A DNA stretch of 64,000 nucleotides from Escherichia coli (GTDB taxonomy: Bacteria > Pseudomonadota > Gammaproteobacteria > Enterobacterales > Enterobacteriaceae), in assembly GCF_001677475.2 (NCBI RefSeq), contig NZ_CP012498.1; one strand, written 5' to 3'. Position 1 is the first letter of the stretch. Each line of letters starts with the position of its first letter. Positions 21,001 to 27,000 of this stretch are shown here, in pieces. Position numbers: made by a program.

Positions 21001-24000
21001 GGGGGGCCCTCCCGGTGCCCTCTGTAAGAGAAGGAGTTTTGTATGTCCCGTTTTGTCCTCGGTAACTGCATCGATGTTATGGCCCGTATTCCTGATAACT
21101 CCATTGATTTCATGTCGGGTAGCAGCTGCACATTACTGTGCAGCCGCCCCCTAAGAACCGTACGTGCCAGTTTCCCGGCATACGGCTCAAGCCTTTCAAT
21201 AACTCCACATTAGAGCCGGCTTCATAACAGATATTCCCTGATGTTTTGCAGTGTGATGACATGCCGGATGTAACATGGCCAGATTACCTATGTTATCCAG
21301 TCCCCCTTCGGATTTCGGCACAATGTGTCGAAGTTGCCAGCCTGTTGTGGCGTTCACTGGCAGGTGGCAGACGGGGCACTGACCTCCCTGTCGGAGCCAC
21401 AGATTTCTTAGGCGAGAGTAACCCTGTATGGATTCCAGCATCGTAGCTTTTAGCCGTGCTTCAAAGTACGATTCGTAGCTGGGATCAAAAGGGTTAGCAG
21501 TGCTTTTTATTTGTCTGTGTCTTTTGACTGGCATATCCGAGATTTCATATAGCGCCAGTAACTCACGTTTGCCTGATGGCAGGTATGAGACGACAATAAC
21601 TCAGTCCGCCTGGCGCCGATTATTCTGGCCGGTTTTGTAACCTGAGTGTCATTTACATGATCCAACAGGAAATGGCGTGACGCTCAATACTTCTCAGGTC
21701 AGTTACTATATGACTCAGCGTAAGAAAGGTATAACTCAGCATATCTCGGCCATGAAGGCTGGTATCTCAGTCCGTTCTGGTCGTCGGATCGAAAAAGGAG
21801 AGTGGGCAAAAAACAGTGTTCGGCACTGGCGCACACGCAAAGATCCTCTGGAAGCTGTGTGGGACAGCATGCTTGTTCCTCTGTTGAAAGAGAGGCCGGC
21901 TCTGACACCAACAACTCTACTGGAGATGCTACAGGATAAATATCCCGGCCAGTACCCCAACAGCCTTCGAAGAACAATGCAACGGCGGGTTCGCGAATGG
22001 AAACTACAGTATGGTACAGAGCAGGAGGTCATGTTCCGCCAGCAACATCAGCCCGGCCTGCGAGGCCTGTCGGACTTTACTGAACTGAAAGGTGTAGTTG
22101 TCACCATCGCCGGTAAGTTGTTGGCGCATAAGTTGTATCACTTCCGTCTGGAATGGAGCCACTGGAGCTGGATGCGGGTTGTTCTGGGTGGTGAGAGCTT
22201 CTCTGCTCTGGCTGAAGGCCTGCAGGAAGCCCTCGGACAACTGGGCGGAGTGCCGGTAGAACATAAAACGGACAGCCTGAGGGCAGCATGGAAACAACAG
22301 GGCGAAGATGGACGCCGCGAGCTGACTGAGCGTTATGCTACTCTCTGTCAGCACTACGGAATGCAGGGCGTACACAATAATGCCGGTCGGGGCCACGAAA
22401 ATGGCTCGGTTGAAAGTGCCCACGGACATCTGAAAAGGCGTATCTGTCAGGCGCTGATACTGCGGGGCAGTAACGACTTCAGCACCATAGAAGAATATCA
22501 GGCCTTCATCACTCAGCAGGTTATGCGGCACAACCGTAACAATCAGGATCTGGTCAAGGAAGAACGTCTTCATCTGAAACCGCTGCCGCTTCGTCGCAGT
22601 GCTGACTATGATGAGCTGACTGTGAGGGTTAGTCGCAGCAGTACCATCAATGTGAAGCACGTCGTCTACAGCGTACCTTCCCGGCTTGTAGGTCAACTGT
22701 TACGGGTCAGGTTATGGGACGATCGTCTGAGCTGTTACGTTGGCAGCAGCGAGGTCATGAGCTGCCCTCGCGTCAGACCAGAAAAAGGGAAGACGCGGGC
22801 CCGTCGTATCGACTTCCGACATGTGATCGACAGTCTGGCAAAAAAGCCCGGTGCGTTCTGCCATGCAACGCTGAGAAATGACATCCTGCCGGACGATGAA
22901 TGGCGGAGGCTGTGGCGTCGCTTATGTAATCATCTGGAGCCCGATATGGCAGGAAGGCTGATGGTACATGCCCTGAAACTGGCTGCAGGATACGACGATA
23001 TCTCAGTCGTGGCAAAAGGTATGGAGCAGATGCTGAATACCCCGGGAAACGTGGATCTGCACCGGCTGATGCGCTTCCTGGGTATAAAAGAAAAGGCGTT
23101 GCCGGTAGTCAATGTGATACAGCATAACCTGAGCAGTTATGAGCAACTACTGCGTGGCAAGGGAGGTTCGCAGTGAGCAATATCCATCACCTTGAACATA
23201 GCCTGCGTAAACTACGCCTGACACGAGTTGGAGCTGAATGGCACGCTCTGGAAAAACGAGCGCTGGCAGAAGGCTGGACACCATCGCGCTATCTTCTGAC
23301 GCTATGCAATGAAGAACTCCTGTGGCGCGAGAGTGAAAAACTGCGTCGTTATAAAAAGGAGGCCCGGTTGCCAGTTGCCAAAACGCTGAGCGAATACGAC
23401 TTCAGTCAGGTGCCGGAACTGAATGGAGCTCAGTTCCGGCAACTCTGTGAAACGACAGACTGGGTTGATGCAGGAGAAAACGTTCTGCTGTTCGGAGCCA
23501 GCGGGTTGGGGAAAAGCCATCTGGCGGCAGCGATCGTGGATGGCGTAGTAGGTCAGGGCTACCGGGCCCGGTTCTACAGCGCAGGAGAGCTGTTGCAGGA
23601 ACTACGTAAAGCCAGAGCTCAGTTGAAACTGAATGAGCTGCTACTGAAACTGGATCGCTACCGGGTGATAGTGGTGGATGATCTTGGCTATGTCAAACGC
23701 GATAGTGCCGAAACGGGTGTGCTGTTCGAGTTAATAGCGCATCGCTATGAACGTGGGAGCCTGGTGATAACCAGTAACCATCCGTTCAGCATGTGGGGCA
23801 GCATCTTCGTGGATGAGACTATGGCGGTGGCTGCGGCAGACAGGCTGATCCATCACGGATATATGTTCGAACTGAAAGGGGAAAGCTACAGGAAAAAGAC
23901 AGCGAAGGCAGTAACAAGCGCGACTTGATGTCGCCCTGAAGGGTGCGGCCAGTATAGTTGGCGCGAGTCGGCAAAACTAGTTGACGTCTAATAGGCAGGA

Positions 24001-27000
24001 TCTTCCCTGTTTCTGTGCCGAATACCCAGTGTCGGAAGTTAACTGAACGAAAGTATTTCTTTCTTATCCAGCCTGTACCTTTCTTTGGGTGTCGTCGACA
24101 TGCCCAGCGCCATAGTGCTTTCCATATTTCATGACTGACTTTCTGAAAGATCTTTTTTGAAACAACATGACGATAGTATCTGGCCCAGCCTTTGAGGACT
24201 GGGTTGAGATGCCATATCAGTGTGCTCTGGCTGACTGTCGGATTGTCTTTTATCGTCTGGCGGACCCTTTTCAGGAATTCCTTTACCTTTTGGGGTGAAG
24301 GTTTAATCAACAGTTTCCCGTTATATTTGCGGATGTTCATACCCAGAAAGTCGAATCCATCACTGATGTGTGTGATTCGTGTCTTTTCTGGTGAGAGGGT
24401 AAGCCCTCTTTCTGCCAGAAAGTTTTCTAACAAGGGAAGAACCTTTTCTGACAGCGTGTCGTGGCTTATCCCCGTGATCACAAAATCGTCCGCATAACGG
24501 ATTATGTTGATCTTTTCTGGATTCAGTCCGCCTCGATAGAAGGTTTTCTTCAACAGAGGCTGCAGACCATCCAGAACCATGTTTGCCAGCGTTGGAGATA
24601 TTATTCCGCCCTGTGGAGTTCCTGCACTGGTTGGGTATAATTTCCCCAAATCAATATATCCGGCTTTCAGCCATCGTTTCAGGATCGCCGTATCCGTTGG
24701 GATATTGGCGATTAGCCATTCATGTGAAATCTCATCAAAACAACTGCGAATGTCGGCTTCCAGAATCCATTGTGCCCGATCAGCCCTGTGCAACGTTGTG
24801 AAACATTGCTCAATGGCATCGGCTGTTGAGCGACAGGGCCTGAACCCAAACGAATTTGGGTCAGCCGTTGTTTCTGCAACAGGTTCCAGCGCCATCAGAT
24901 AGAGTGCCTGCATGGCTCTGTCTTTCATTGTCGGGATCCCTAATGGTCGCTTTTTGCCGTTAGATTTTGGGATATATATACGCCGTAGCGGAAGAGGTTT
25001 GTAACCCCTTCTTTTCAGCGTGTATATAGCCTTCATCTTGCTGCCGGGTTTTGACCATGTTTTGCCATCAACACCCGGCGTTCTCTTCCCTCTGTTATCT
25101 GTCACTCGTTTAACTGCCATTGCTCTGGCGCTGAACGAGTGGGTGAGTAGCCATTGCAAGGCTTTTACCTTGCCCGCTTTCTCCTCCTGTATTGCCTTCA
25201 CGATACGCGCCTGCAGCCTTCTGACCTCGCGACGGCACTTGGCCCAGTTGATATTGTGCCAGTGAGTCACGATGTCGGTGGGTGCACCCGCGTTTATGTT
25301 TTTCGCAGTCATCTGCTTACCCTCCTTCAAAGGTATTCAGGTTATCTCGTGTTGAAAGACCATGCGGAAGTCTGCCCGCTTTCGCGTGGAATGATGTTGC
25401 TGAAACAGCTCAACTCCTGTCCATCCCATTACAGGATGGCATTCGCTTTCTCCGCACTCCTGTACCCGCATCACTGACAGCTTTCCTCGCGGTTAGCCTG
25501 CCCTGAGGGCAGTGATACGGGCTTACCGTGTTCCGCACAGTTTGCAGGGATGGGTTAGGTTCTGCCTATCCACCGGTAGCTTTGATGTCCGTGCCTCCCC
25601 AGTCAAAAGAGGAAGGTCCAGCTACGTTCCCATTTTGGGTCGGGCCTGTCAGTGCCTTTGGCCCGTTCAGGGTTGACGATGTTTATCAGCAGTTCACATG
25701 TGTTAACCCTGCCATCCAGCCTTGCGCCCCATCCGCCCTGACACTGGCAGACATGCTTCCTCCTCGCGGATTCCACATGGTGTGAAAACCGGGCTACGTT
25801 GTCCCGAAGGCTTCATACCGAACAGTTACCCGCTCTGCATGCTTCGGTAGGCTACAGGCGACGGAACGCCTGGTTTTACTACTTCCTTTACATGAAGTTA
25901 AAACAACAAACTGTGCGACTTTCACGTCGCACACTGACTGACCCACCGTACCTCGTCGGTTTCCGTGACCGTTCCGGGCGCACCATTGCCGGTGACGTTA
26001 ATGATGACTGGCTGCAACCTGCCAGCAATGAGATGTACCGCGTACTCAAAAAAGACGCACTGATGGTCAGCTTCTACGGCTGGCACCGTATTGACCGCTT
26101 TATGGCGGCCTGGAAACGCGCCGGATTCAGCGTGGTAGGGCACCTTGTGTTCACCAAAAACTACACATCCAAATCTGCGTATGTCGCGTACCGCCACGAA
26201 TGCGCTTACATCCTGGCAAAGGGCAGTCCGGCCCGGCCCCGTAACCCGCTGCCGGATGTGCTGGGCTGGAAATATTCGGGCAACCGCCATCACCCGACGG
26301 AAAAGCCCGTTACCAGCCTGCAACCGCTGATTGAGAGCTTCACACACCCGAACGCGATTGTGCTGGATCCGTTTGCAGGCAGCGGTTCAACCTGCGTGGC
26401 TGCCCTTCAGTCCGGACGCCGGTATATCGGTATCGAGCTGCTTGAACAGTATCACCGTGCCGGACAGCAACGACTGGCCGCCGTGCAACGGGCCATGCAG
26501 CAGGGGGCCGTGAATGATAACTGGTTTGAACCGGAGGCTGCATGACGAATTACAGCGGATTCGAAGATATGCGTGAACAGGTGGCGGAACTGGCCAATAC
26601 CATGTGCGACCTGCGTACAACCATGAATGAGATGGAGCAGCGGTAAAGCGATGCGGACACCCTCCCGGAACGTCTGGTGCGCCAGACACTCTTTCGTGCC
26701 AGTTACCTGTTTATGAAGGCATATAACGAAATTCTGGAACTGGATGCGTGCTTTAAAGATTGAGAAGGAGACGAGAATGTACGGAACATGCGAAACGCTA
26801 TGCCGGGCGCTGGCAGCAAAGTATCCGGGAGACACGCCGCTGATGCTGGTTATCTGGTCCCCGGAAGAGATTCAGGCCCTCGCTGACGGAATGGATATTT
26901 CCCTGTCCGATCATGAAATCAGGACCGTCCTGGCGCGCCTGGAGGACATCCCGGAAGACCAGCGGACTGAGTCCTGTATTTCTTCCGGCGTGGCGATGGA

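Follow-up and report, generated by a model that had tools for sequence, protein, structure and literature searches.

A leading-region DNA methyltransferase gene split by an antisense group II intron that is itself split by the IS21-family element ISEc10

Orphan DNA methyltransferases encoded in the leading region of conjugative plasmids, including the M.EcoGIX family, are thought to help plasmids evade restriction upon entry (PMC11541004, PMC7736820). The leading region of the F-type plasmid pO157 also carries a group II intron, EcI5 (E.c.I5, class IIB1/CL1), a 2.4-kb element that begins GUGCGAC, has a D1-D4-7 type core and encodes an RT-X-D-HNH protein of 574 aa; it follows directly on sopB and is encoded in the same sense as the leading genes, while the methylase gene of pO157 is uninterrupted. 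Nestings of the form gene, antisense intron, insertion sequence have a precedent in CP100064 and CP100015, where the inner element belongs to the IS66 family. Here we describe a locus of the same kind in the window, a 64,000-nucleotide stretch of the Escherichia coli contig NZ_CP012498.1. All of its parts, and this kind of nesting, are already known, and it is an ordinary pile-up of known mobile elements. The methyltransferase gene, the antisense intron within it and the copy of ISEc10 within the intron very probably record three successive insertions within an F-type plasmid's leading region.

A preliminary description of the locus had proposed that the methyltransferase frame is restored by joining position 21113 to position 25933, and this is borne out. 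Exon A (21043–21113, plus strand; codons 1–23 and two nucleotides, MSRFVLGNCIDVMARIPDNSIDF plus AT) and exon B (25933–26545, plus strand; A and then LTDPPY through to the stop) join into a 684-nt open reading frame of 227 aa that reads ...IDF-I-LTDPPY... across the junction. The joined protein matches the NCBIfam model NF010253, 'DNA methyltransferase' (also PRK13699), from residue 1 to 227 and over model positions 1–226 of 226 (485 bits; cut-off 244). Both signature motifs lie in exon B, and their order, the catalytic motif IV (LTDPPY, residues 25–30) followed by the SAM-binding motif I (DPFAGSGST, near residue 180), is that of the beta class, so that the gene can be classed from its sequence as an orphan beta-class N6-adenine/N4-cytosine DNA methyltransferase of the NF010253 type. 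Intact plasmid methyltransferases align with the joined exons as had been anticipated: exon B is 91% identical to the pO157 methylase over residues 25–228 (tblastn), and a 139-nt probe spanning the exon join finds the intron-free site in at least 4,429 PLSDB plasmids, with a top identity of 98.6%. The first 20 kb of the window are mosaic, any single PLSDB plasmid covering at most 30% of them. The likeness to the described leading-region methyltransferases (Samuel & Burstein 2024, PMC11541004; M.EcoGIX family, PMC7736820) is one of position, orientation (transcription from the transferred strand) and beta-class DPPY...FxGxG motif order; the gene described here differs in being interrupted.

The interruption falls two codons upstream of the catalytic DPPY motif. 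With the ribozyme lying on the opposite strand, the methyltransferase mRNA would be unable to splice the intron out, and it is therefore sound to regard the methyltransferase of this plasmid as knocked out. In principle, translation from an ATG near 25892 could yield an N-terminally truncated methyltransferase that begins just before LTDPPY.

The 4.8-kb insert had been read as an opposite-strand group II intron whose ends would yield domains I, V and VI, and our searches agree on both counts. The intron runs from 25932 to 21114 on the minus strand; it measures 4,819 bp in place, and 2,403 nt remain after removal of the insertion sequence and one copy of its target-site duplication. Its 5' end, GTGCG at 25932–25928, fits the GUGYG rule, and its 3' end, CUACCCGAC, with ...CCCGAC finishing at 21114, fits the AY rule. 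The domain I core (25725–25873, minus strand) matches Rfam RF02012, group-II-D1D4-7, over model positions 1–151 of 151 (113.6 bits, E 3.9e-23; gathering score 34), and domains V and VI (21114–21190, minus strand) match RF00029 over positions 1–77 of 77 (65.4 bits; gathering score 40). Within the latter match, domain V shows the catalytic AGC triad and aligns as GAGCCGUAU...ACGGUUC, and domain VI presents a bulged branch A in ...CUACCC. The plus strand of the region gave no Rfam ribozyme match. With the insertion sequence removed, domain IV holds an intact gene of 1,701 nt for a 566-aa RT-maturase-HNH protein, which scores 379 bits against TIGR04416 (cut-off 300) and contains the Pfam domains RVT_N, RVT_1, GIIM and HNH.

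The intron shares with EcI5 the GUGCGAC start, the D1-D4-7 type core, the length of 2.4 kb, the RT-X-D-HNH protein (566 against 574 aa) and a place among F-type leading-region genes. It aligns with EcI5 across domains I–III, with about 68% nucleotide identity in the RNA core and 60% identity between the two proteins. It is a bacterial group II intron of the same class as EcI5 (IIB1/CL1-like) yet distinct from it, and we found no published name for it in the literature. The second intron of the window, at 29337–31678, had been put forward as its intact counterpart, but this is a different intron, with 66% nucleotide and 53% protein identity, and does not provide a like-for-like reference. Identity with EcI5 was rejected for either window intron, given the nucleotide identity of about 68% to the pO157 intron and the different site, as was identity with E.c.I11, the sense-oriented intron upstream of ssb in pEC958, whose protein has 633 aa and which is unrelated to both window introns. 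A consensus scan of 20600–26900 returned two promoter-like sites, where chance alone would give 4.2, and 15 terminator-like sites, more than the 5.2 expected; such matches are uninformative as to transcription of the intron.

The element inside the intron is a complete ISEc10 of the IS21 family (2,410 bp; 21584–23993, plus strand), with ends TATGAGACG... and ...CGTCTAATA and 99.8–99.9% nucleotide identity to RefSeq copies annotated 'ISEc10 family'. It encodes the IstA transposase (21677–23176, plus strand; 499 aa; NF033546, 226 bits, cut-off 160), which differs at 2–3 residues from that of other ISEc10 copies, and the IstB helper ATPase of the AAA+ type (23173–23928, plus strand; 251 aa; NF038214, 267 bits, cut-off 200), the two genes overlapping by 4 nt. 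The terminal inverted repeats have 48-nt arms (21584–21631 and 23946–23993) that are 71% complementary, and the element is flanked by a 6-bp target-site duplication, GGCAGG, at 21578–21583 and 23994–23999. Other ISEc10 copies share the termini and the overlapping istA and istB, with duplications of 6–7 bp against 6 bp here; the insertion site alone is new.

That site is codon 440 of the intron protein, beyond the GIIM domain (residues 343–421) and before the HNH domain (residues 507–550), so that the earlier placement of an istA/istB element between the RT/maturase and HNH parts is upheld; the nesting order and all coordinates given in the preliminary description hold exactly. The 5' part of the gene (23994–25312, minus strand) encodes residues 1–440 with RVT_N, RVT_1 and GIIM. 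The 3' part (21196–21583, minus strand) encodes residues ~439–566, being counted from ~439 because the duplicated GGCAGG supplies its opening 6 nt, and holds the rest of the D region, the HNH endonuclease and the stop.

Searches of PLSDB and of 5,426 complete E. coli genomes found no other copy of this intron bearing ISEc10, and a 30-nt probe for the IS–intron junction had no match in GTDB species representatives or JGI metagenomes. A composite that is unique among these collections could suggest an assembly artefact in which repeated mobile elements were fused, since short-read assemblies can mis-join multi-copy sequences such as ISEc10 and group II introns. We find this scarcely credible. 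Six bases of intron sequence are perfectly duplicated at the two IS junctions. Once the IS is taken out, the reading frame of the intron protein runs through without a break and agrees with other copies base for base; over its 2,403 bases the restored intron departs at 2 from the IS-free copy that NZ_CP027343 carries at this site. The methyltransferase frame, too, is recovered exactly across the intron junctions. Random mis-joins would not do this.

The insertion would have consequences for the intron. As read in place, the intron protein is 497 aa long, residues 1–440 followed by 57 aa contributed by the IS; this product still has the RT and maturase domains but not the DNA-binding and HNH regions, and the intron RNA would become twice its normal length. 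Given the split protein and the doubled length, this intron copy is most likely no longer able to form a functional homing RNP, and the earlier suggestion that ISEc10 has immobilised it is a reasonable one. The truncated protein, with its RT and maturase, might conceivably support splicing, and endonuclease-independent mobility, or mobility with protein supplied in trans by another copy in the cell, is possible.

Outside this plasmid the same intron is found without ISEc10. Among the 69 intron-bearing plasmids in PLSDB, 67 have it at this methyltransferase junction, every one antisense, and copies such as those of NZ_CP027343 and NZ_CP024145 (annotated ltrA) are 99.8–99.9% identical to the intron described here, with the same 1,701-nt protein gene intact, while the flanking methyltransferase allele differs by 4–8%. 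Across all copies the introns are 97–99.9% identical and the flanking methyltransferase exons 81–96%, and allele differences begin immediately beside the intron, at -1, -4 and -7. The presence of near-identical introns in diverged host alleles points to repeated retrohoming. The new point is thus that, judging from these plasmids, the methyltransferase site is the intron's regular, recurrent homing site rather than an accidental victim.

A single ancestral insertion, spread afterwards across methyltransferase alleles by homologous recombination, would account for the shared nucleotide position and orientation of all 67 occupied sites, and the leading regions of F plasmids are mosaic and frequently recombine. 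It is harder to reconcile with an intron divergence of 0.1–3% against 4–19% in the immediately flanking exons; with differences starting at -1, -4 and -7, several lineages would each have needed a crossover precisely at the edge of the intron. NZ_CP011019, in which the intron occupies an ectopic, partly matching site, further indicates that the intron moves. We consider spread by recombination rather unlikely and favor repeated retrohoming.

Features of the intron RNA are consistent with such targeting. A candidate EBS1, 5'-UUUGACUG-3', lies in a hairpin loop (25600–25607, minus strand) and would pair with positions -1 to -8 of the 5' exon at 7 of 8 positions here, at 8 of 8 in a Salmonella plasmid allele and at 7–8 of 8 across six natural alleles; natural variants of the homing site read CAGTCAGT, CGGTGAGG and CGGTTAAA. 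A candidate EBS2 core, ACCC (25670–25673, minus strand), would pair with GGGU at -12 to -9, and EBS2 of EcI5 falls at the same alignment column, where both EcI5 and the second window intron pair with their own positions -13 to -9, such that the column covaries in three introns. Both assignments are comparative, drawn from natural alleles and from three related introns rather than from a solved secondary structure. Several other candidates were discarded: ACUGAC (intron position 280) and GACCCA (292) belong to sequence conserved in introns with different targets, and AACUG near 392 forms part of the 3' side of the basal stem of domain I. A 7-nt match in EcI5, CACCGGU at position 344, was passed over for the column showing covariation across the three introns.

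The order of the last two insertions also deserves comment. If the IS had entered the intron first, the IS-bearing 4.8-kb intron would have homed here later, using protein supplied in trans, and it is true that this exon allele together with an intron lacking the IS is not found in PLSDB, the best junction match being 95.8%. This order is nevertheless very unlikely: the collections searched yielded no second ISEc10-bearing copy of this intron, L004 pairs the identical IBS1 allele with an IS-free intron of 99.83% identity, and cargo of large size in domain IV is reported to lower insertion efficiency (PMC8524655). We therefore retain the order in which the intron came first. The IS66-family element of CP100064 and CP100015 lies in the same intron at the same methyltransferase site; being of a different IS family and at a different point in the intron protein gene, it represents an independent event.

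We suggest the following history. An intact orphan beta-class methyltransferase would have stood among the leading-region genes, sharing with them an orientation that allows transcription from the transferred strand. An endonuclease-proficient IIB1/CL1-like intron would then have retrohomed into the bottom (antisense) strand, between the ...IDF-I and LTDPPY codons, its EBS1 and EBS2 loops pairing with DNA that codes for the conserved DPPY region; this would have inactivated the methyltransferase at a site that is the normal home of the intron, repeatedly invaded in diverged alleles. Finally, ISEc10 would have transposed into the protein gene in domain IV, duplicating GGCAGG, separating the RT/maturase from the D/HNH part and doubling the length of the intron.

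The orientation of the intron invites a further thought. The two window introns are antisense and EcI5 and E.c.I11 sense-oriented, which weakens any notion that leading-region introns in general favor the transferred strand. A wider reading, which we regard as improbable, is that this lineage is a dedicated antisense parasite of orphan methyltransferase genes in leading regions that uses the constrained DNA of the DPPY region as a durable homing site, deletes an anti-restriction function with each invasion and enters through the transferred (T) strand. The last element arises because the sense strand of the intron is the T strand: the intron might reverse-splice into incoming single-stranded DNA during conjugation, with priming by complementary-strand synthesis and without need of its endonuclease.

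The findings leave current understanding unchanged, and their value lies mainly in annotation and plasmid history. The pseudogene-like fragments, two of the methyltransferase and two of the intron protein, resolve into a single series of events, and this plasmid should be scored as being without the leading-region methyltransferase. The intron may serve as a start for a new targetron scaffold or as a marker of a plasmid sublineage. As an unnamed relative of EcI5 with a specific, recurrent antisense homing site, it would offer a natural case of a group II intron acting purely as a retroelement.

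The methyltransferase frame that opens at 21043 stays in frame as far as ...IDF before entering intron sequence. Joining 21113 to 25933 yields an ATA codon (Ile) followed by LTDPPY..., and the resulting 684-nt ORF encodes 227 aa that match the NCBIfam model NF010253 (PRK13699, DNA methyltransferase) over every model position, first to last (485 bits, cut-off 244), bearing out the preliminary description, in which this join was said to restore the reading frame. A 139-nt probe spanning the join was also found uninterrupted in at least 4,429 PLSDB plasmids, where the gene is annotated 'DNA methylase' (top identity 98.6%). 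The full-length model match and these uninterrupted sites indicate that the join is exact and that the empty site is the common state. In the window, the peptide from exon A (21043-21113) is 56 aa long and exon B (25933-26545) lacks the first 24 residues. As the ribozyme is encoded on the opposite strand, methyltransferase transcripts cannot splice the intron out, and we infer that methyltransferase function is lost.

Within the 4,819 bp between the exons, Rfam matches were confined to the minus strand: group-II-D1D4-7 at 25873-25725 (113.6 bits, E 3.9e-23) and Intron_gpII, covering domains V/VI, at 21190-21114 (65.4 bits, full model), with the domain V AGC triad and the domain VI bulged A visible in the latter alignment. 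The 5′ end, GUGCGAC, lies at 25932 and the 3′ end, ...CUACCCGAC, at 21114. The minus-only matches and the GUGCGAC start confirm the proposed opposite-strand group II intron with a domain V/VI 3′ end. Removal of the IS and one copy of its duplication restores a 2,403-nt intron with a single unbroken 566-aa ORF, differing at 2 of 2,403 positions from the IS-free copy that occupies the same site in plasmid NZ_CP027343. The restored protein matches TIGR04416 (group II RT/maturase) at 379 bits and has Pfam domains RVT_N (residues 18-99), RVT_1 (114-327), GIIM (343-421) and HNH (507-550).

Compared with NZ_CP027343, the window forms two blocks, 20683-21583 and 23994-27500, which overlap by 6 bp on that plasmid, leaving 2,410 extra bp at 21584-23993. 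This insert is 99.8-99.9% identical to elements annotated 'IS21-like element ISEc10 family', encodes an IstA of 499 aa (NF033546, 226 bits) with an overlapping IstB of 251 aa (NF038214, 267 bits), has imperfect 48-nt terminal inverted repeats, and is flanked on both sides by GGCAGG (21578-21583 and 23994-23999). Two further ISEc10 copies have identical termini (TATGAGACG... and ...CGTCTAATA) and the identical 2,410-bp length, with duplications of 6 or 7 bp, and their IstA/IstB differ from those here by 1-3 residues. The insert is a complete, recent and ordinary product of transposition. With the istA/istB models and the GGCAGG duplication, the three-level nesting of methyltransferase gene, antisense group II intron and IS21-family element is substantiated.

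ISEc10 lies at codon 440 of the intron protein, between the maturase and HNH domains and in the region corresponding to the DNA-binding D domain, so that the cut does fall between the RT/maturase and HNH parts, as had been described (GIIM ends at residue 421 and HNH begins at 507). In situ, the 5′ part of the protein reads 57 more codons into the IS, giving a 497-aa product, and the D and HNH regions are lost. The intron RNA would contain an antisense IS of 2.4 kb within domain IV; large domain IV cargo is reported to lower insertion efficiency (PMC8524655). Because of these losses and this cargo, and because the window's one other intron protein shares 53% identity with this one, this intron copy is likely immobilised.

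In kind, such a structure is routine, given that reviews describe most bacterial group II intron copies as truncated or inactivated and as lying amid other mobile DNAs (PMC4424553), and that in CP100064.1 (598-4608) and CP100015.1 this intron, again in the same methyltransferase site, holds an IS66-family element (tnpA/tnpB/tnpC) inserted elsewhere in the RT gene than ISEc10 here. These two are an independent example of three-level nesting. The composite is new as an instance, with all its parts and its kind already known. Coverage of the 5.8-kb region by any PLSDB plasmid reaches 59% at most, neither IS-intron junction is spanned in any complete RefSeq E. coli genome, and a 30-nt junction probe is absent from GTDB species representatives and JGI metagenomes. 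Overall, the earlier observation is confirmed and its interpretation supported, with two refinements: the site appears to be one of recurrent homing, and the neighbouring intron is a different one.

That neighbour, an intact 2,342-nt intron at 29337-31678 (minus strand, antisense to leading-region genes; 555-aa protein at 29418-31085), had been proposed as the intact intron for comparison, but shares just 66% nucleotide and 53% protein identity with the methyltransferase intron. It is common at this position among PLSDB F plasmids, and the 2,343-bp intron known from FII-33 (pHN7A8) plasmids (PMC8765060) is probably the same one. Directly beyond it lies an IS110-family transposase gene (32432-33493, minus strand; NF033542, 213 bits), an arrangement common to only 2 PLSDB plasmids. 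For the methyltransferase intron we found no published name. It is not EcI5, the pO157 intron (35666-38071), since the ribozyme core is ~68% and the protein 60% identical; EcI5 follows sopB in the sense orientation and leaves the pO157 methylase intact, whereas the present intron lies antisense within the methylase gene. The two share their architecture; EcI5 has been classed as IIB1, with an RT of the CL1 lineage (PMC8643678). EcI5 and E.c.I11 (pEC958, 16631-18532) are sense to the leading genes, unlike both introns of the window, which are antisense. It seems that several distinct introns share the leading region as a hotspot, without uniform strand preference.

The window is part of an F-type conjugative plasmid: the traJ 5′ UTR, FinP and the traG antisense RNA were found with Rfam, and traM, an SLT transglycosylase gene and a DUF932 gene lie directly upstream of traJ. 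The nested insertion is in the leading region, adjoining a ParM-like gene and upstream of DUF1380 and KlcA/ArdB-type antirestriction genes. The tra operon lies to the right of oriT on the plus strand, which makes the minus strand the transferred one; the leading genes, methyltransferase included, are thus oriented for transcription from it, an orientation described for such genes (PMC11541004). With pO157 queries, tblastn found no match to Ssb, PsiB or PsiA across all 64 kb of the window. The window does contain the methyltransferase, KlcA/ArdB, DUF932, SLT and traM genes. Judged from window 29100-33990 against pEC958 11600-24400, ~12 kb of normal F leading region (ssb, a parB-like gene, psiB, psiA, hok/mok) appears absent beside the intact intron and the IS110 element. 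Window 1-20000 is a mosaic, at most 30% of it covered by any one PLSDB plasmid; the plasmids that match it best in part are large ones from 'Escherichia sp.' and E. coli of cattle and food origin. The source plasmid itself is absent from PLSDB and from complete RefSeq E. coli genomes.

The opening 533 nt of the methyltransferase intron are present in 69 PLSDB plasmids, and in 67 plasmids a 120-nt probe over its 5′ junction with the methyltransferase exon found a match along 80% or more of the probe length, so nearly all plasmid copies lie antisense at the same nucleotide. When window 21043-26545 was compared with seven sampled plasmids, NZ_CP027343 among them, the intron copies were mutually 97.0-99.9% identical and the flanking exons only 81-96%; between the window and NZ_CP027343, exon differences start at -1, -4, -7 and -13 from the intron. 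Since the intron is far younger than the divergence of its host alleles, and allele differences reach its boundary, the pattern is best explained by repeated site-specific retrohoming into methyltransferase alleles; one ancient insertion followed by recombination among alleles fits less well. A second, 3′-truncated copy lies in NZ_CP011019.1 (118918-125450), at an unrelated site near trbI/traW and beside ISEc22 (IS66-like). Its 5′ flank (...AGGTCAGG, also given as ...GGCAGGTCAGG) is partly like the home site, as expected for ectopic insertion.

For candidate target-recognition segments, domain I of this intron, the intact intron and EcI5 was aligned and searched for stretches able to pair with the 5′ exon of the intron in question. 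One alignment column shows covariation: the methyltransferase intron has ACCC there, pairing with -12 to -9, the intact intron UCGGC, pairing with -13 to -9, and EcI5 ACCAG, pairing with -13 to -9. This makes the column a plausible, not proven, candidate EBS2. About 65 nt downstream, a hairpin loop of the methyltransferase intron holds 5′-UUUGACUG-3′, which pairs with exon positions -1 to -8: fully (8 of 8) in the Salmonella plasmid allele, and at 7 of 8 in every E. coli and E. albertii allele. In the alignment, the homologous loops pair likewise with their own exons (EcI5 GUUUG with -1 to -5; GCGC of the intact intron with -1 to -4), and the loop is a candidate EBS1, again plausible rather than proven. 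The intron targets the antisense strand of the sequence that codes for ...F-I-L-T-D-P-P-Y; the catalytic motif constrains this segment, so as a homing site it would be durable.
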